In this document: in pieces, positions 18,877-49,000 of the stretch
How the letters are laid out: each line of letters begins with the position of its first letter
How positions within the stretch are numbered: the first letter of the stretch is position 1
Source of the DNA: a virus
Lineage: Duplodnaviria > Caudoviricetes
Length of the DNA: 64,000 nt
Virus record (IMG/VR): IMGVR_UViG_3300033146_000601
Location: 1,621 to 65,620 of that record
Strand: one strand, 5' to 3'
The notes under the pieces: generated by a model
The model's database searches: none
Told to the model about the DNA's origin: nothing
The model's input: only the letters and a program-made list of their open reading frames with translations
Program-made: the position numbers and the translations under genes

Positions 18877-19413
18877 TTAAATATGTTGTTTAATGTCTGA
18901 ATGCGGTATGTTACTACGAAATGTTTCTGGAACTTTATCAATTTTATTAAAATTTAATTTCGGAACAAATGCAATTTTAGCTTGTGCAATTTGATCCCCA
19001 GGATTAATTCTATAAGAATTGGATCCATTATTTACTAATATAACAAATATTTCTCCTCTATATTTACTGTTTAATGTTCCAATTCCATTAGACACTACGA
19101 TTTTATATTTATCTGCCAATTTGCATTTAGATCTTATTTGCATTTCAAAAAAATTATTATTCGGCAATTCAATTTTAATTCCGGTTGGAAACCAATGAGT
19201 TTTGGTTGGCATTAAATTGAATGGATCATCAATTGCTGCTCTTAAATCAAAACAACAATCGCCAATATATTCATGTTGGATTTCATTATATTTACTAAAA
19301 TCGTAATTATCCAAATATTCAATATTAATACTTGGATATAATATTGACATTACAATATTTTCAACGTGTTGAATTTTTACTTTATTATTTAGTTCTTTAT
19401 AATTTTGATTCAT
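18877..19413 (-). CDS. Trimeric dUTPase-like protein with degenerate active site
   Basis: FDLRA, PTGIKIELP, GTLNSKYRGEI, GDQIAQ; motif II RSG and the motif V Gly-rich loop are absent. Confidence 0.8.
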   Translation of the reverse strand: MNQNYKELNNKVKIQHVENIVMSILYPSINIEYLDNYDFSKYNEIQHEYIGDCCFDLRAAIDDPFNLMPTKTHWFPTGIKIELPNNNFFEMQIRSKCKLADKYKIVVSNGIGTLNSKYRGEIFVILVNNGSNSYRINPGDQIAQAKIAFVPKLNFNKIDKVPETFRSNIPHSDIKQHI

Positions 19414-19419
19414 AAAACT

Positions 19420-19462
19420 CTCCTATCTACGAGAACCCCAAACTTCAGTTTGGAGAATCCCG
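19420..19462 (-). mobile_element. IS200/IS605-like end hairpin, copy 1
   Basis: CTCCAAACTGAAGTTTGGGGTTCTCGTAGATAGGAG, near-identical to 54155-54192. Confidence 0.5.
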
Positions 19463-19503
19463 CATTTAAATAGATTATATAGATATACAACTATAATAAG
19501 ATT

Positions 19504-19671
19504 TTAATAAGCTACCATTCCAAAGTTATTATAAATAACTTTGGAATCTTTGCGTTTGGCTTCGGCAACATCAGTAAACATTACTTTACCTTGTGTAGAT
19601 GTCCATCCTTTACAAACTGAATAATTATTATTATGTTTAATAATATCACCAGGTCGAAATTTAATAAACAT
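19504..19671 (-). pseudogene. 55-aa ORF resembling the C-terminal domain of IscB-type nucleases
   Basis: KFRPGDIIK...VCKGWTS.G.V...KVIYNNFGMV, followed ~45 nt later by an IS-like hairpin. Confidence 0.35.
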
Positions 19672-19755
19672 CCTTTTAAATATTATTAAAATTAGGGGTA
19701 CAGTACAGGGTACATACTATAATATTTTATTGACATAATTCTCCTTTTCCTAGTA

Positions 19756-21723
19756 TTATATTAAATTCATACCATATCCAATTGCTGGTCTAAATATCGA
19801 AAACATCATAAATAATTTTTCAAATGTGTTCATTTTAGTAATTTGATTCAAAATTGTTGTGTCGTTAAAATCAACAACATCTCGGTGGTCAAATTGTTCG
19901 TTTCCAATTGATATTGCATATATAACATCATCAACATGTTCAGCCGGAGTATGTATTGTAGAAACATCAAATGCTCGTCGTCCTACTCTATTATATAATT
20001 GACTAGCATTTGCTGCTCCTAATTTTTTCATTTCTTGGCCATCAAATTTAAATATTGATGGGATGTACATATTTTTAACTTTAATATTCAATCCAATTCC
20101 AACAGCATCAGTTGCTAAAATAGTTCGTATTTTACCAGAACTAAATAAATTTACAACAATTTGTTGATCTAATGTTCCCTGTTTAAGTTCAGATTTTGAC
20201 ATACCAGGTTCGTCCATTCGAAAAACATATCCAAATCCATGCAATACAGCAGTTCGTAAAATTGAATTTGAAATCCGTTCAGCTCCTGGCATTTCTTTTG
20301 CTTTTTTAATCATATAACCACTATTAATTTTTAAATTTTGGGACACTTTATTATTAGTTCGTCTAAACGATGAAGTTGGCATAGCGCTAAATGATTTTTG
20401 TTGAATTACTCCATTATTAATATCTTTTGCAGAATAAACATTTCCTGAACTTAATTTTATAGCTTTTTCTATTAATTGTATAATTAATTTTTTATTAAAC
20501 AAAATAATTAAATTTGAATTTTCTTTTGGATTAATTAATAAATTAATTAATGTATTATTATCATTTATTCCATCATTTGCCAATACTGTAATTTTAGAAG
20601 CGTTTCCCTCATTACTTTTTAATATTTTAATTTCAAATCCCATATTTGCATTCACAAAATTAATAAAATTTTTTGCTGATATAGGATTAATTGTTCCACT
20701 TAATAATATTACATTTGTATCTTTATTTTTTTCATTAAACATTTTATAAATATTTTTTGCACTTGTTTCTGCATTATCTTGGGAATTATCGGGATCACTT
20801 TGAATTGTATGGGCTTCATCAATAATTATACTATCAATATGATTTATATTTTTAAATACTTTTTCATATGCAGTATCATGAACTGAAATAACAAATAATG
20901 AATTATTAATATTTGTAGGAGTATAAACTGCATTTGCTCTTTGTACTAAAACTTTATCAACATATTTTTTAATACCATTTGAAAGTTGATCAAGAACAAT
21001 ACGATCTAATTGTTTTATTTCATCTGTTATGCGATACATTGATTGTTCAATGTATTTATTTTGAGTAGTATCAAATTGGGTTTTTAAATGATCATATTGT
21101 TTATATAACCCATTTCTACGATTAATTTGGCCCTCAATATTAATTTTAATATTTCTAGTTATGAATTTCATAACAGCATCAAATGGATTAATATCCTTAT
21201 TTGTGTGTTTTTTTTTTGAATTTATTTTTTCTAGAGATTCATATTGTTGAATCATTGATAATGCTTCAAACAAAACTTGGTATAATATTTCACAAATTTC
21301 AGAATAAATTTGATCACATAAAGTTCGAGTTGGTACTGAATAAATGACAGTTGGTATTTGATCAGACTCAGTTAATATTAATTTAATTCTATTTATTAAA
21401 TTATAATAATATTGTATACTATTATTTCCCATATTATTTTGCATAGATGGGTTTATTTGCAATGTATTTTCTGCCCATGAATAAACAACAGGAGCAGTTT
21501 TTCCTGCTCCTGGAGCAGCAACAACATATATTGAATTGTTTTGTCTTAATGCTTTAATTATTTGGGTTTGCCAATCAGCAAATCGATATGTAAATAATTG
21601 TATCCCTTGTAAATTATTTGCCATTGCTCTATTTTGATGCAGTCCCATTGGTGGACGGACAGCATTAGCAGCTTGTGATTTATAATTTTGTATAAAACTT
21701 AAACTTTCACATAAATTTGACAT
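19756..21723 (-). CDS. SF2 DExH helicase (Ski2-like)
   Basis: APGAGKT, SVPTRTL, IIDEAH, LSGT, ATDAVGIGLN, QLYNRVGRR. Confidence 0.9.
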   Translation of the reverse strand: MSNLCESLSFIQNYKSQAANAVRPPMGLHQNRAMANNLQGIQLFTYRFADWQTQIIKALRQNNSIYVVAAPGAGKTAPVVYSWAENTLQINPSMQNNMGNNSIQYYYNLINRIKLILTESDQIPTVIYSVPTRTLCDQIYSEICEILYQVLFEALSMIQQYESLEKINSKKKHTNKDINPFDAVMKFITRNIKINIEGQINRRNGLYKQYDHLKTQFDTTQNKYIEQSMYRITDEIKQLDRIVLDQLSNGIKKYVDKVLVQRANAVYTPTNINNSLFVISVHDTAYEKVFKNINHIDSIIIDEAHTIQSDPDNSQDNAETSAKNIYKMFNEKNKDTNVILLSGTINPISAKNFINFVNANMGFEIKILKSNEGNASKITVLANDGINDNNTLINLLINPKENSNLIILFNKKLIIQLIEKAIKLSSGNVYSAKDINNGVIQQKSFSAMPTSSFRRTNNKVSQNLKINSGYMIKKAKEMPGAERISNSILRTAVLHGFGYVFRMDEPGMSKSELKQGTLDQQIVVNLFSSGKIRTILATDAVGIGLNIKVKNMYIPSIFKFDGQEMKKLGAANASQLYNRVGRRAFDVSTIHTPAEHVDDVIYAISIGNEQFDHRDVVDFNDTTILNQITKMNTFEKLFMMFSIFRPAIGYGMNLI

Positions 21724-21748
21724 AAGTTACCCTATGGTTAATGTTAAT

Positions 21749-21780
21749 ATTTAAAAATTTTAGATAGAAATTATATAAAT
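21749..21780 (+). promoter_or_regulatory. Phage promoter driving candidate ncRNA 1
   Basis: ATTT-N11-ATAGAAATTATATAAAT on the plus strand with no credible ORF downstream. Confidence 0.65.
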
Positions 21781-22058
21781 AAGAAATGTATTGTGAGGGA
21801 ACCACTCAGCGAAAGCTGAACCCTTCAGTACATTTTGATGGATGCCGTGTTACTTTTAAGGACACGGGGTATATTAAATTGATGAGAATAGATGTTGAAA
21901 TCTATTGTACGCTCAGAAAATTTGGTATATTATCAGAGTTGAGAAGCTATTCTCACGGTACGATGTAATTTATTACACGTATTCAAAGGTTGTATATTTG
22001 TCTGATCTCGGATTTTCCCAACGTTCGCGAACAGCGGCTAGTAAGGAATTTCTTGTTT
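21781..22058 (+). ncRNA. Candidate structured ncRNA 1 (~275 nt)
   Basis: GC-enriched; 5'/3' ends pair (AAGAAAT/ATTTCTT); stems TGTATTG/CAGTACA, TCAGC-GAAA-GCTGA, CCGTGTT/GACACGG, AATAGA/TCTATT, TGAGAA/TTCTCA, ATCAGA/TCTGAT; U-rich 3' tract. Confidence 0.65.
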
Positions 22059-22069
22059 GTTTCTTTTTT

Positions 22070-23362
22070 TTATTTTTTTGTTGCCGAATAAATAATAATA
22101 GCGGCATCATGCTCTAATGAATAATTAATAGATTGATTAACTGCTGATTTCCACTGACTTTTTGTTTGGCTTGGGTTTAATTGTTCATAAGCTTGTTTAA
22201 TACTTTCATTAGTTAATAATGAATATATTGCCATAGTATCACCATCGAAATCTGCACCACATCGAACACAATCTAATGGATTAATTCCCATAACACTATT
22301 AGTATCTTTAACAATAGGTTGGGCAGACATATAACTTTCACGATTTTCAACTGGATCTCGTTTATATAAAACTTGTTTTCCAACAAGAATTTCATTTAAT
22401 GATTCTATTAATTGTTCTTTAAACATCGCAGGAACACTTTCAGGTTCATCATATATCATCGAAATAAAATTAGTTATTGTTTTATTGGTTACATCATCAA
22501 CCCCCATAAAATCTTGAATTTGATCTAACATAGTTTTATGTTTAAATGCATAATGAATAAAAAAAGGTTCAAACAACTTTAACAATATATGCCAAGAAAT
22601 TCCAACTTCTCCTAAATTTAAATTCATATCTTGTGCAATTACTAATCGAGCACTAAAATCTAGTACTTTTTTCATAATCCCACCACGAATCATTCCATAT
22701 TTACCTTTAAGTAATTCTTTAATTTGTTTATTAATATTAATTAATAATTTTTGAGCATTTTCATATAATTCTTGTGTCAAATTGGGATCTAATAATTCAA
22801 CATCTGTTGGTAATATTTGAATATAATTGATAAGTCTAGTATATAAAACATTAATTTCAGAATATTGTATTTGTGTTTTATTTTCTTTAATTATAATATC
22901 ACGCAATCCAGCTGGCATTACAATATATTTAGTGATAAAAATCTTTGATTTATTATCTTTTAAATATTTAATATTTTTAATATTTTTATCACCAAAAGAA
23001 TCAAAATTAATCTTATCAAAATTTTGAATAAAAAAAACAATGCCAGATTCACCAGTTTCATCTTCTATTAATTCACCGGAATCAGTTATTGTATATTTGG
23101 TTTTGTTTAAAATTAATTTTGTTAATGATGGATGCACGGATAATGCGATTGGATAAGCTTCAGGATGTATAAATGGTAAATATAAATCAATATATCCAAA
23201 TGTAGATTTTCTATTACGACTACCTAATTGCCCGAAAATTGATTCTGAAAATAATCCTTTAGGGTCAAATTGTCTCGCACTTGTATAATATTTTGAACTT
23301 TCAACAGGGTTTATATTTTTATCAGTAATGAATCTATTAATATCCAATAATGTAAACTTCAA
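22070..23362 (-). CDS. RNA polymerase A, beta' N-terminal half (catalytic)
   Basis: GLFSESIFG, FGYIDL, VMPAGLR, KGKYGMIRGGIMKKVLDFSARLVI, KRDP, catalytic GADFDGD; TTG start. Confidence 0.92.
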   Translation of the reverse strand: MKFTLLDINRFITDKNINPVESSKYYTSARQFDPKGLFSESIFGQLGSRNRKSTFGYIDLYLPFIHPEAYPIALSVHPSLTKLILNKTKYTITDSGELIEDETGESGIVFFIQNFDKINFDSFGDKNIKNIKYLKDNKSKIFITKYIVMPAGLRDIIIKENKTQIQYSEINVLYTRLINYIQILPTDVELLDPNLTQELYENAQKLLININKQIKELLKGKYGMIRGGIMKKVLDFSARLVIAQDMNLNLGEVGISWHILLKLFEPFFIHYAFKHKTMLDQIQDFMGVDDVTNKTITNFISMIYDEPESVPAMFKEQLIESLNEILVGKQVLYKRDPVENRESYMSAQPIVKDTNSVMGINPLDCVRCGADFDGDTMAIYSLLTNESIKQAYEQLNPSQTKSQWKSAVNQSINYSLEHDAAIIIYSATKK

Positions 23363-23415
23363 TTGGAACCCCTTCCAATCGGAATCTAATTAAAGATTCC
23401 GATCAAATTATTTTT

Positions 23416-24333
23416 TTACTTGATGAATTTAATTAACCAACTCGTAAGTTTTGCCGTATAATCAAAAATTTCAATATCTTGACCACGTGTAACATTATAT
23501 TTTGGGTATTGCTTATTAAAATCAAATCGAACATCTTCAATATATAAATTAATATATCGTTGAATATCGCTTGTTTTTTTAATAATTCCATATTTATTAA
23601 ATATTTTATGTATCCTATCTTCAATTATAAATTTTGAATTATTATGTCTCCAATATGATACAATTGGACAATTTTTTGGAGGAGGGGTTATATCGTCTTG
23701 AACTTGTTTTGAATTAAATTTAGATTGTTTTTTCTTTAAAATTAAACGTTTTTTACCCAAATATAATTCACTATTATAAGGTTTAATAACACACCCGTAT
23801 ATTGGATTATGTTTAACTGAAATCACACTTGTATTTAATTTTTCAATATTATATTTTAAAGCATTAGTTAATGAAATATTATAATTAAAAATTGGAGCCA
23901 TTTTTAAATTAATTTCATGTAAAAATTGAATTAATTTCTTAGCTGGCATAAAATTATTATTTTCAAATACATCATGAATCATTAATGTATTTCGTCCATA
24001 TTTAACTTTGCGATTAATTGAATTTCCAATAAGAACTCCATATAAAATATAAATTGTATTTGTTGCAGTACTATGCTGTTTAATTAAATTAAACATATTC
24101 GAATTAATTATTGTTTGATAATTATGATATGGTTCATCATTTAATAAATATTTGTCTCTAGTACCATATAAAATTTCATTATTTGGAAAAATAGACACTT
24201 GGAAACTTCTTCCTAATAATTTTTCCATCATTATACATTTAATTGAATTACTATTATATCTATTATTAAATGCAGTAATAATATGATTATTTGTTGTTCG
24301 TTCAATATGATCGAATCTATAAAATTTATACAT
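23416..24333 (-). CDS. RNA ligase 2 (Rnl2)-like protein with degenerate motifs
   Basis: EKLLGRSF (motif I), YGVLIG (III), HDV (IIIa), YGCVIKP (IV), LKKKQSKF (V); likely start MYKFY. Confidence 0.7.
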   Translation of the reverse strand: MYKFYRFDHIERTTNNHIITAFNNRYNSNSIKCIMMEKLLGRSFQVSIFPNNEILYGTRDKYLLNDEPYHNYQTIINSNMFNLIKQHSTATNTIYILYGVLIGNSINRKVKYGRNTLMIHDVFENNNFMPAKKLIQFLHEINLKMAPIFNYNISLTNALKYNIEKLNTSVISVKHNPIYGCVIKPYNSELYLGKKRLILKKKQSKFNSKQVQDDITPPPKNCPIVSYWRHNNSKFIIEDRIHKIFNKYGIIKKTSDIQRYINLYIEDVRFDFNKQYPKYNVTRGQDIEIFDYTAKLTSWLIKFIK

Positions 24334-24352
24334 AATTTTTTCTTTCAATAAA

Positions 24353-25096
24353 TTATTTAGATATTTCTGAAGTATCTTTTTCAAAAACATCAACATGTAT
24401 TCTAGGAGAATATCGATATCCATAAGATTTGCAGAATTCAATTGTATCTAAACAATTGTGTTTATAATGTTTTTTAAAATTTTCTGAATTTAAAGATGGA
24501 GTCATTGGCATAAAAAATAATTTAGATTTATCTTCTATTGATAGACAAAAATTTATTATATCATTTTTATATTTTTCACAATAAATTAATTTATAAATAA
24601 AATTCACATGATAAAATGATAATTTTTCATATAATTCGTTATACATAAAAATTAATTTATTAATTGACATTTCATATTCACTAACATAACAATTAATATC
24701 TAATTTAGGAGATATATTTAATTGTATTTGTTTATTATCAGCTGAATCCAAAATAAATTTATTAGCAATATCGAATCCATTTGTTTCAAATTCAATAATA
24801 TCAAATATTGATTTAAAATTTGATATTAATAAGTTGATTAATTCTTGTTGAATAAATGGTTCCCCTCCAGTAATCATTAAATGTTTTATATTTGGATATT
24901 TATATAAATTTTCATATATCATTCGTTCAATATCTGCAAACTCATATTGATGATTTTTCTTTTGAGATATAGAATATTTAGAATCACAAAATGGACATTT
25001 TAAATTACAACCTTCGAATCGAATCAATAATGATGGGTGACCAACTAATGGCCCTTCTCCTTGAACAGTTGGAATTATTTGATTAATATAATACAT
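24353..25096 (-). CDS. queE: 7-carboxy-7-deazaguanine synthase (radical SAM)
   Basis: TVQGEG, IRFEGCNLKCPFCDS, ITGGEP, ETNG, SPK, YSPRIH. Confidence 0.93.
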   Translation of the reverse strand: MYYINQIIPTVQGEGPLVGHPSLLIRFEGCNLKCPFCDSKYSISQKKNHQYEFADIERMIYENLYKYPNIKHLMITGGEPFIQQELINLLISNFKSIFDIIEFETNGFDIANKFILDSADNKQIQLNISPKLDINCYVSEYEMSINKLIFMYNELYEKLSFYHVNFIYKLIYCEKYKNDIINFCLSIEDKSKLFFMPMTPSLNSENFKKHYKHNCLDTIEFCKSYGYRYSPRIHVDVFEKDTSEISK

Positions 25097-34887: not shown

Positions 34888-34953
34888 ATATAATTTCTAT
34901 CTATAATTTGACAATTAAAATATTCAATAGTTTTATATAGAAATTATATTAAT
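34888..34953. promoter_or_regulatory. Divergent pair of phage promoters
   Basis: Minus-strand core at 34888-34902 and plus-strand ATTC-N11-ATAGAAATTATATTAAT at 34922-34953. Confidence 0.7.
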
Positions 34954-35487
34954 ATGAAAAATTCGAAACGAATTTTTCTTGCTATCAAGACAACTAAAGT
35001 TTTTTCAAAGGTTGGGACAATTCCCCCCCAATACTTTGAAAAAACTTTAGCTAGTCGCCAACCTGATGGGGTTGGTTCGATTTTTAATAAAGTCATCACT
35101 GAAGATGACATTATTAATGCTAATTGGGCCGATTACCATCATCCAAACTTAATGTTTGGGTGTACAGCGTTCAGATCGTCCATACCAGGACGGTTGGGTG
35201 TTGTAAGGTTGAAGGATCTCAATCCGTCTATAATGGTATCCCTCGTGGATCCAAAAGAGACGGGTCAGGTCTCAGCTGTAATTAAGACTTCGGCGCAGAT
35301 AGTTGCTCCGGATGTTGATTTTACGGTTGTTATCCTGGGAAAAGAGGGAGGACAAGAAATTGTGTTTACCCTCCATCCTGGAGATCCTATTTTACCCAGT
35401 GAAGTTTCTTCAAAACTTGCTGGGAAGACCATTTCAATTTCAGAAGCAATTGCTTTGGGATTGGAATGGGCTTCATTGAATCATTAG
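34954..35487 (+). CDS. Hypothetical early protein, probably leaderless
   Basis: 177 aa, GC above flanks, no RBS, ATG immediately after the promoter. Confidence 0.75.
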   Translation: MKNSKRIFLAIKTTKVFSKVGTIPPQYFEKTLASRQPDGVGSIFNKVITEDDIINANWADYHHPNLMFGCTAFRSSIPGRLGVVRLKDLNPSIMVSLVDPKETGQVSAVIKTSAQIVAPDVDFTVVILGKEGGQEIVFTLHPGDPILPSEVSSKLAGKTISISEAIALGLEWASLNH

Positions 35488-35695
35488 ATTCAATGTAAAC
35501 GTGCAAAGAGTTCATAGTTAAGCTTATGACTACGTAAAGTCATGAAAACTATGTCAGGTTGTTAATCTATTCCTGTTAAAAAAAAGATTAATGCGGTCGT
35601 CACTGCCAAAGGGTCATAAGTGATACAGGAGTAAACCTGTATAAACAATCAACGAATTACATTGGGTAATTCGTTTTTATTTGAACCTGATATAT
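35488..35695 (+). ncRNA. Candidate structured ncRNA 2 (~200 nt)
   Basis: Stems CATAGTT/AACTATG, ATGACT-ACGTAA-AGTCAT, TTAATCT/AGATTAA, TCACT/AGTGA, TACAGG-AGTAAA-CCTGTA, AACGAATTAC/GTAATTCGTT, TCAGGTT/AACCTGA. Confidence 0.65.
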
Positions 35696-35732
35696 TAATA
35701 ACCAAAATCTAAAGATTCAAGGAGAAGTTTTT

Positions 35733-48088: not shown

Positions 48089-48130
48089 AAAAAAATCTCT
48101 CGTAGAGACGAGATTTTTTAGCAAGCAGCT
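48089..48130 (-). terminator. Terminator, copy 2
   Basis: Near-identical to 47611-47651. Confidence 0.75.
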
Positions 48131-48312
48131 CTTACGTTTGAATTTTACGTCGGGTTTTAGCTGCTACCAACCGACGGAATGTCTTTTGAGACGTTACTCT
48201 CTAAGGGATTCAATCCTTAAATTTTGTTGGGTTTATTCCCAATGCATTTTTAACCAACTATTACGTTGTTGGCAGGCTTATATGCATAAACCTTTTGATA
48301 CGCTTGAAATCT
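48122..48312 (-). ncRNA. Candidate structured ncRNA 3 (~190 nt) with a 3' pseudoknot
   Basis: Minus strand: ATGCAT/ATGCAT enclosing CCAAC-aACGTAAta-GTTGG; TTGGG-AATAAA-CCCAA; TAAGG/CCTTA; GTCT-CAAA-AGAC; CGTCGG/CCGACG whose loop AGCAGCT pairs with downstream AGCTGCT. Confidence 0.6.
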
Positions 48313-48603
48313 TTACCCGTGGGCACAGATCTCAAGGACGTTTCCTCTGCCATCATCATAAACCACTTTACGGGTTTTATGACCGATGACATGGAAAACG
48401 ATCATATAACACCAAACGGCCATAGGGCCGGTTAGTGTTACTTGATCGTAATCGACTTCAAGATTATCAGCATTTCTGCCAATAATCTCCTTGGCTATCC
48501 CCGGAGGGGTAACCAAGTTAAGTCGACCGCCAACGGTCTCAATTTCACAATCATGATACAATGTATCATTTGTGAGACTGAGATCGATAACTTTCAATCT
48601 CAT
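48313..48603 (-). CDS. Csx3/Crn3-like protein, candidate cyclic-oligoadenylate ring nuclease
   Basis: VTLTGPMAVWCYMIVFHVIGH...VVYDDGRG...AH parallels Csx3 VVISGRGPIWL...AH..AH...VYDPRLG...SH; 96 aa; own promoter. Confidence 0.55.
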   Translation of the reverse strand: MRLKVIDLSLTNDTLYHDCEIETVGGRLNLVTPPGIAKEIIGRNADNLEVDYDQVTLTGPMAVWCYMIVFHVIGHKTRKVVYDDGRGNVLEICAHG

Positions 48604-48972: not shown

Positions 48973-49000
48973 ATATAATTTCTATCTGAAATGTATGAAT
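48973..49000 (-). promoter_or_regulatory. Phage promoter ATTC-N11-ATAGAAAT
   Basis: Full bipartite motif. Confidence 0.7.

Follow-up and report, generated by a model that had tools for sequence, protein, structure and literature searches.

A plus-strand island between two minus-strand genes

The DNA studied here is a window of 64,000 nucleotides (nt), bases 1621–65620 of the 65.6-kb virus record IMGVR_UViG_3300033146_000601 (CheckV completeness 24%). The minus strand holds nearly all the long open reading frames (ORFs) of the window. Between two of its genes, one for the beta'-N fragment of an RNA polymerase (RNAP) and one for a DEAD-box helicase, lies a gap of 346 nt (21724–22069), which we call the island. 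Our tentative reading, to which we give slightly less than an even chance, is that the island is a transcribed non-coding antisense RNA. A preliminary description of this DNA had placed a plus-strand island inside a minus-strand block at this junction, and the ORFs and the Pfam and PHROG matches confirm the gap. The window is AT-rich, with a GC content of 0.15–0.35 in 200-nt windows across 19000–25000. The GC content of the island is 0.30–0.35, and its GC skew is positive, opposite to that of its surroundings. The features of the locus are as follows.

19756–21723, minus strand: flanking DEAD-box helicase gene (Pfam DEAD 6.3e-14, also Helicase_C)
21739–21776, plus strand: phage promoter, consisting of an upstream element (TTAATATTT...) and the 13-nt core ATAGAAATTATAT at 21764–21776
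21781 (+/- 2 nt), plus strand: predicted transcription start, by analogy with the start about 5 nt past the core at 34937
21783–21836, plus strand: hairpin A, with a 16-bp outer stem (mean pair probability 0.81), an internal loop and a 5-bp inner stem (0.99)
21786–21968, plus strand: 60-aa ORF from the ORF listing, the longest in the island, coinciding with the structured part
21845–21867, plus strand: hairpin B (CCGUGU.../...ACACGG), mean pair probability 0.89
21868–21931, plus strand: hairpin C, long, in three segments (13, 4 and 7 bp), 0.85–0.96
21940–21955, plus strand: hairpin D (UGAGAA GCUA UUCUCA), 0.93
21957–21983, plus strand: hairpin E, 11 bp, 0.91
22010–22053, plus strand: imperfect 13-bp hairpin with internal loops, terminator-like but non-canonical, 0.70–0.91
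22056–22079, plus strand: U-rich tail (UUUGUUUCUUUUUUUUAUUUUUUU), read from the sequence and overlapping the beta'-N stop codon (22070–22072)
22070–23362, minus strand: flanking RNAP beta'-N fragment gene (Pfam RNA_pol_Rpb1_2 6e-14; PHROG 2986 'RNA polymerase beta subunit' 2.3e-48)

The island carries a phage promoter of its own

The promoter core ATAGAAATTATAT is present in seven exact copies in the window, compared with 0.11 expected and at most one across 100 shuffles, and the island copy resembles other copies of the record over 30–44 nt. A looser 10-mer, ATAGAAA[TC][AT]A, occurs 20 times in the window, 17 times in intergenic positions. Sixteen of these 17 copies are co-oriented with the next gene at a distance of 8–255 nt. 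The copy in the island is the sole exception, pointing at the 3' end of a convergent gene. The promoter motif claimed in the preliminary description therefore stands far above the shuffle expectation, and these results support a plus-strand unit that is independent and has a genuine phage promoter. Phage cis-antisense RNAs have their own promoter opposite neighboring genes, and the exact plus-strand core places such a promoter in the island.

Another copy of the core, at 34937 on the plus strand, ends 4 nt upstream of the ATG of a conserved 177-aa protein (ORF177). ORF177 has 13 homologs, the N-termini of the eight that were aligned match from Met1, and no other plus-strand gene lies upstream of it. 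From this spacing, the aligned N-termini and the lack of an upstream plus-strand gene we infer that the ORF177 mRNA is leaderless, driven by the same promoter class, and starts about 5 nt past the core. By analogy, the island transcript would start near 21781, which is where hairpin A, or an alternative helix between the 5' and 3' ends, begins.

Downstream folding was also compared among the 17 intergenic promoter copies. In seven of them the first 45 nt downstream are at or below the 10th folding percentile of random 45-nt windows (1.7 expected), the strongly folding examples including the copies at 48976, 34937, 45200 and 9077; the overall rank test does not reach significance (P = 0.13). 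TATAAT occurs in the reverse complement of the phage core and, together with CTCACA 16 nt upstream, forms a sigma-70-like site (10/12; 21797–21770, minus strand) directed toward the helicase gene.

Fold, stability and 3' end of the predicted RNA

The minimum free energy (MFE) structure of 21781–22066 on the plus strand comprises 15 helical segments and 101 base pairs, 17 of which are G-U. The five local hairpins A–E are well defined (mean pair probability 0.81–0.99), whereas the long-range helices reach just 0.20–0.39. A GAAA tetraloop at 21811–21814 caps the 5-bp inner stem of hairpin A with a probability of 0.99, and no 11-nt GAAA receptor motif was seen by eye. The helices proposed earlier, including the tetraloop, are thus recovered. 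It had also been proposed that the 5' and 3' ends pair with each other. Positions 21768–21787 and 22048–22067 are indeed 75% complementary, but the helix is absent from the MFE structure at 37 C, where a fold constrained to contain it is 1.5 kcal/mol worse; at 50 and 65 C the constrained fold equals the MFE.

On the plus strand, 21780–22075 folds at −80.8 kcal/mol (z = −3.78), and none of 200 shuffles is as stable. The minus strand of the same interval reaches −57.4 kcal/mol (z = −2.52), a stability matched by 3 of 200 shuffles. The plus strand is thus favored, as the preliminary description had held from the G-U pairs. The stability signal is carried by the 188 nt of 21781–21968 (plus-strand z = −5.03, 0 of 200 shuffles as stable); the 3' third of the island is not structured, because the last 98 nt (21969–22066) give z = +0.42. 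Among 120 control windows of 188 nt, z averages −0.57 (standard deviation 1.6), with −4.0 at the 5th percentile and −5.0 at the 1st; re-estimated with 40 shuffles, the island part has z = −4.3. The expected excess stability is therefore found, and it places the island in the tail of the distribution (the lowest 3–5% or so of windows), yet it is not unique. The U-rich end that had been noticed is present at 22056–22079, and the hairpin before it (22010–22053) was not called a terminator by the terminator scan.

Comparison with known RNA families and classes

No match at the gathering score was found in a scan of the whole window with Rfam 15. At E ≤ 10, the region 21500–22300 gives just three chance-level rows, at 12.6–18.9 bits compared with gathering scores of 45–65. 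ARAGORN found no tRNA or transfer-messenger RNA (tmRNA) gene. The earlier impression that the island resembles neither tRNA, tmRNA nor RNase P agrees with both scans.

Three further classes were considered and set aside. 6S RNA, an RNAP-binding regulator, resembles the island in size class only (about 200–300 nt): 6S RNA is a single rod with a large bubble that mimics an open promoter, whereas the MFE and centroid structures of the island are strings of five or six separate hairpins with no rod and no central bubble, and there is no Rfam match to 6S RNA. A group I or group II intron does not fit, as the structured strand is antisense to both flanks, the flanks are different genes that are both complete in the relative L088, and no Rfam intron match was found at the island. 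Promoter-primed R-loop origins are known from T4 (oriF and oriG); such an origin was considered for the island, and gene orientation does not switch there.

RNA genes behind the same promoter class in a relative

The record of the relative G001 is 285.6 kb long and 95% complete; its beta'-N protein shares 41% amino acid identity with the one next to the island. It contains four exact promoter cores, compared with none for a reversed-pattern control. A core precedes two tandem units of about 155 nt (L179:1344–1500 and L179:1158–1312, both minus strand) that have no ORF longer than 41 codons. As paralogs, the two units differ by compensatory changes at 13 of their 45 predicted pairs, and each has four hairpins and a U-rich tail. 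They match no Rfam family, and only two strong copies exist in G001. These units appear to be good candidates for a new family of phage small RNAs (sRNAs). Another core lies about 263 nt upstream of two tRNA genes (L177:1092–1238, minus strand), one called as tRNA-Asn by ARAGORN and the second found by Rfam alone (35.8 bits). Since the G001 cores precede both the sRNA units and the tRNAs, the promoter class appears to drive RNA genes in this clade.

The G001 units are like the island in the promoter core, the hairpin at the 5' end, the presence of several hairpins and the UUUGUUU-rich tail. They are not homologous to it: a covariance model (CM) of the G001 units (CM R2), run with filters off, gives 60 weak matches in the window, none within 21700–22100 and the best of them terminator hairpins elsewhere, and a model of hairpins A and B (CM R1) misses G001.

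Two other observations were made in G001. Its beta'-N gene (C1:195219–197664; L174, L175) matches in two pieces, covering residues 1–339 and 339–429, that lie about 1.15 kb apart with a 259-aa ORF between them, which suggests an intron with a homing-endonuclease-like gene, or some other insertion. A weak match to the Moco/tungsten riboswitch aptamer is found at L179:334–477 on the minus strand (26.8 bits compared with a gathering score of 36; E = 0.0035).

A diverged variant of the island

Among the sequencing runs listed as carrying this DNA none is an RNA run. Four runs were compared, and one alone covers the island. This variant, X1, comes from a hydrothermal vent metagenome run and is a 473-nt contig over 21736–22208, about 96% identical, at a depth of 4.3, with 13 substitutions and two gaps, one of which is listed. 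When its 10 substitutions within the island are placed on the MFE structure, three are at unpaired positions, two are compensatory, two lead to G-U pairs and three break pairs. The sole compensatory change is in hairpin D, where 21945 A>G and 21950 U>C turn the loop-closing A-U pair into G-C; at least one such double change arises with a probability of 0.049 in simulations. The two changes to G-U pairs, 21826 C>U in hairpin A (C-G to U-G) and 21920 A>G in hairpin C (A-U to G-U), are allowed on the plus strand only. Two more changes, at 21908 and 21910, are in the internal loop of hairpin C. One pair of hairpin B is broken by 21847 G>A, and 21977 A>U breaks a pair of hairpin E in this register. 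X1 thus backs hairpin D marginally and gives no support for the fold as a whole.

The junction in relatives

The junction was compared across the loci L001–L167 and G001; contigs of the beta'-N relatives P0002–P0005 (58–62% identity) are outside this comparison. L088, the closest relative compared (58% amino acid identity), is the only locus of L001–L167 with a helicase after the beta'-N gene, and the two genes are 17 nt apart there. In the other screened loci (≤33% identity) the beta' frame continues to about 3 kb where locus length allows. G001 has a 65-aa sense ORF between beta'-N and helicase, with no similarity to the island.

Homologs of the island sequence were looked for as well. Searches of L001–L080 with blastn and nhmmer gave no matches. 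The promoter pattern was found at six loci in IMG/VR viral contigs: L171, which is a true relative, and five loci that have a single coding sequence in common and are taken as chance matches. Covariation among homologs, on which the proposal of an RNA was to be checked, could not be shown because no homologs were found.

A candidate antisense RNA and its possible action

If the island is indeed a transcribed non-coding antisense RNA, it would be a lineage-specific, moron-like insertion: a whole transcription unit, in reverse orientation, placed between genes that lie side by side in the closest relative. The promoter (core 21764–21776) would drive plus-strand transcription from near 21781. The product would be a transcript of about 290 nt, most likely non-coding, with the five local hairpins A–E in its first 190 nt or so; its 3' end would be a weak hairpin followed by a long run of U at the stop codon of beta'-N. 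Through convergent transcription and full complementarity to an mRNA that reads through from beta'-N to helicase, it could act in cis and dampen or uncouple helicase expression. We infer the transcription of the island, the ends of the transcript and its role. The read-through that the overlap needs is suggested by the 17-nt spacing in L088 and by the terminator scan, which scored no minus-strand terminator in the gap. Taken on its own, this cis-antisense mechanism is plausible but rather doubtful. Relatives with the same RNAP do without the island, and its rate of change is near neutral; for these reasons it seems to be an accessory element. A cis role is favored because of this dispensability and the poorly constrained sequence. 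A trans-acting, sequence-specific RNAP cofactor is less likely than a cis role, and the absence of the island from both relatives that share the junction argues against a core RNAP cofactor or scaffold. The roles as RNAP regulator, scaffold or decoy suggested in the preliminary description find no support.

Several results weigh against an antisense RNA at this locus. The island is missing from both relatives with the beta'-N–helicase junction (L088 and G001). CM R1, a weak model built from the same stretch of the window entered twice, has no match in the whole records of 46 relatives (46 of 50 named loci being covered). BLAST against the whole records of five relatives stays at chance level (best E = 0.011 over 32 nt), exact scans with three patterns in IMG/VR and one in species genomes give no match, and the 35 records matched by blastn among 50,697 phage records match in the AT-rich promoter part only (15% of the query) and are taken as chance. 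In X1, 11 of 293 positions of the island (21777–22069) are changed, by 10 substitutions and one deletion, compared with 3 of 443 in the coding flank; the island thus changes about five times faster than flanking coding DNA (P = 0.004, Fisher's exact test), and its rate looks near neutral (about 4% vs 0.7%). X1 also alters position 10 of the promoter core (21773), which is otherwise invariant. Three of the 10 substitutions break predicted pairs, and three or fewer broken pairs are obtained in 32% of simulations. X1 folds 1.8 kcal/mol less stably, compared with a loss of 5.0 +/- 4.8 for random mutation sets, 24% of which do as well (P = 0.24). No canonical plus-strand terminator was scored at the island in the terminator scan. 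A regression of MFE on G and C content, poorly anchored at higher GC, ranks the island windows only 38th and 99th of 864. Two protein genes of the same phage fold far more strongly, ORF96 (48313–48603, minus strand) at z = −10.1 and ORF177, over its first 290 nt, at z = −9.9. Both are conserved protein families behind the same promoter, ORF96 having 194 homologs besides itself, so in this phage RNA genes and mRNAs cannot be told apart by fold stability. The structured part of the island is precisely the stretch spanned by the 60-aa ORF, and only 0.5% of shuffles contain an ATG-initiated ORF of that length or more that begins within the first 15 nt, a criterion set post hoc. The island may thus encode a small protein, although both its codon usage and the homolog searches argue against this. 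On the whole, the case for a functional new non-coding RNA is thin, and because no relatives were found and the sequence changes fast, the island is an ordinary candidate phage antisense RNA and not a proven new RNA class.

Side observations on ORF96 and ORF177 concern their structure. ORF96 and the start of ORF177 (34954–35243, plus strand) form long near-perfect stems at a GC content of 0.36–0.44, above that of the genome, and neither protein has a Pfam or PHROG match. The regions past their stop codons also fold stably (35485–35700, plus strand, z = −4.2 for ORF177; 48095–48315, minus strand, z = −4.5 for ORF96), and by eye both have a UAAGCYU outer helix together with an ACGUAA loop on an inner hairpin. 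Pairwise local alignments among the island, 35488–35700 and the reverse complement of 48090–48312 are no better than those of shuffles (143, 69 and 177 of 200).

Alternative explanations

A small-protein cassette, in which a short-leader mRNA encodes the 60-aa ORF and the hairpins are mRNA structure, is in our view quite unlikely. It stays under consideration because the ORF matches the structured 188 nt, starts about 5 nt from the predicted transcription start, and has a promoter of the class that drives the apparently leaderless gene of the conserved 177-aa protein. The layout of promoter, ORF, 3' region and U-rich end is also that of the two other, GC-richer cassettes behind this promoter, whose proven protein genes fold even more strongly. 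The ORF remains open in X1, where the two other short ORFs of the island gain a stop or a frameshift. A 14-nt motif recurs about 10 nt past the stop of the 60-aa ORF and about 11 nt past that of ORF96, but it is no better than chance (69 of 200 local-alignment shuffles). A plus-strand ORF of at least 60 aa is found in 4.2% of dinucleotide shuffles. As noted previously for the overlapping short ORFs, no ribosome-binding site is apparent: no Shine-Dalgarno-like sequence was seen by eye, and with the AUG at about +6 the mRNA would not be truly leaderless. The 60-aa ORF has no Pfam or PHROG match, and phmmer against 1.84 billion representatives found no true homolog, compared with 194 further homologs for ORF96 and 13 for ORF177. 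The single phmmer match was rejected as a tandem-repeat artefact in which 17 residues are matched many times. Its codon score in frame 0 is no better than in the +1 and +2 frames or in shuffles (the fractions of shuffles that reach at least its score are 0.59 and 0.75), unlike three of three control genes from the cassettes, which prefer frame 0 even with a core-gene codon table. Five of the eight X1 changes in the ORF are non-synonymous and three are synonymous. Structure prediction was uninformative: without an alignment, AlphaFold gave a best pLDDT of 59.9, with 34–42 for the other four models, and the ESM Atlas (recognition 1216) gave no usable match.

The near-neutral rate of change and the altered promoter core in X1 would also be expected of a decaying remnant, namely a cassette of the moron or promoter-early stem-loop (PeSL) kind that was inserted by recombination between promoter repeats, has lost its cargo gene and is perhaps transcribed but functionless. 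We consider such a remnant unlikely. The island is missing from both syntenic relatives, its structure is kept no better than chance overall, its 3' third is unstructured, and the recurring promoter repeat with 30–44 nt of similarity would provide recombination substrates. A z of about −5.0 is unexpected for decayed sequence, however; one compensatory pair is seen in X1, the island is kept in two diverged variants, and no pseudogene can be recognized, with no protein-family match in any listed frame. A function of the minus strand, as a structured intercistronic spacer or helicase 5' untranslated region, or as a host-type promoter for the helicase, is most improbable. The minus strand does fold better than shuffles, the sigma-70-like site faces the helicase, and the scan scored no terminator in the gap and two minus-strand hits inside the helicase gene (21512–21487). 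The plus strand is nevertheless 23 kcal/mol more stable, two changes in X1 keep pairs on that strand only, the phage promoter motif faces it, L088 does without such a spacer, and promoter-like sites are no commoner than in shuffles (4 compared with a mean of 6.0). Finally, the five-hairpin core of about 190 nt might be the founder of a new trans-acting phage RNA family, made from a phage-RNAP promoter dedicated to it beside the RNAP and helicase genes, that perhaps binds or titrates a host or phage protein, for example by acting as a decoy in defence or by modulating RNAP-A or the helicase, and whose relatives have escaped detection only because the vent-phage lineage is barely sampled; the two suppositions together are very unlikely to hold.

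Relation to known phage elements

Promoter-led antisense RNAs are known from other phages. ONT-cappable-seq of six virulent Pseudomonas phages gave 20 antisense RNAs with a defined start, four of them in the jumbo phage phiKZ, with functions unknown, and candidate non-coding RNAs derived from untranslated regions were also mapped in virulent Pseudomonas phages (PMC10914365). An earlier differential RNA-seq study of phiKZ reported no leaderless transcript, and Northern blotting did not bear out the one sRNA that it had predicted (PMC8244752). The Pseudomonas-phage antisense RNAs and the island are alike in a promoter-driven transcript opposite the surrounding genes of a lytic, RNAP-encoding phage; the former were detected experimentally, whereas the island RNA is predicted only, and the two are not expected to be related in sequence. 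The island is a candidate member of this known kind, the phage promoter-led antisense RNAs, and not a new category.

The island also resembles the insertions known as morons, a concept reportedly due to Hendrix and colleagues. PeSLs are cassettes of T4-type phages (PMC2839356). Morons and PeSLs are like the island in having a conserved promoter repeat and a stem-loop or U-rich end around variable, non-essential DNA between conserved genes, and in being missing from the closest relative. The island is indeed inserted between genes that are 17 nt apart in L088. Of the two ends of such a cassette, the promoter is present, and the 3' end is an imperfect hairpin with a U-run, not a scored terminator, in a region of z = +0.42. 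As for a cargo gene, the 60-aa ORF is present, which has no Shine-Dalgarno-like sequence, homologs or coding codon bias. PeSLs have sigma-70-like promoters and flank protein ORFans, whereas the island has a phage-specific promoter, a reversed orientation and cargo without a convincing ORF.

If the island is real, the transcription program of an uncultured jumbo phage with its own multi-subunit RNA polymerases would be extended by a promoter-led RNA, antisense or non-coding. Few such RNAs have been mapped in this group of phages, and none has a known role (PMC8244752, PMC10914365). As a candidate from one lineage that shows no conservation, the island is of low general importance. It converges on the beta'-N–helicase operon and from that position may control the expression of polymerase and helicase. 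More informative than the island itself is its context: the same promoter class appears to drive tRNAs and paralogous sRNAs in G001, and highly structured protein mRNAs in this phage.

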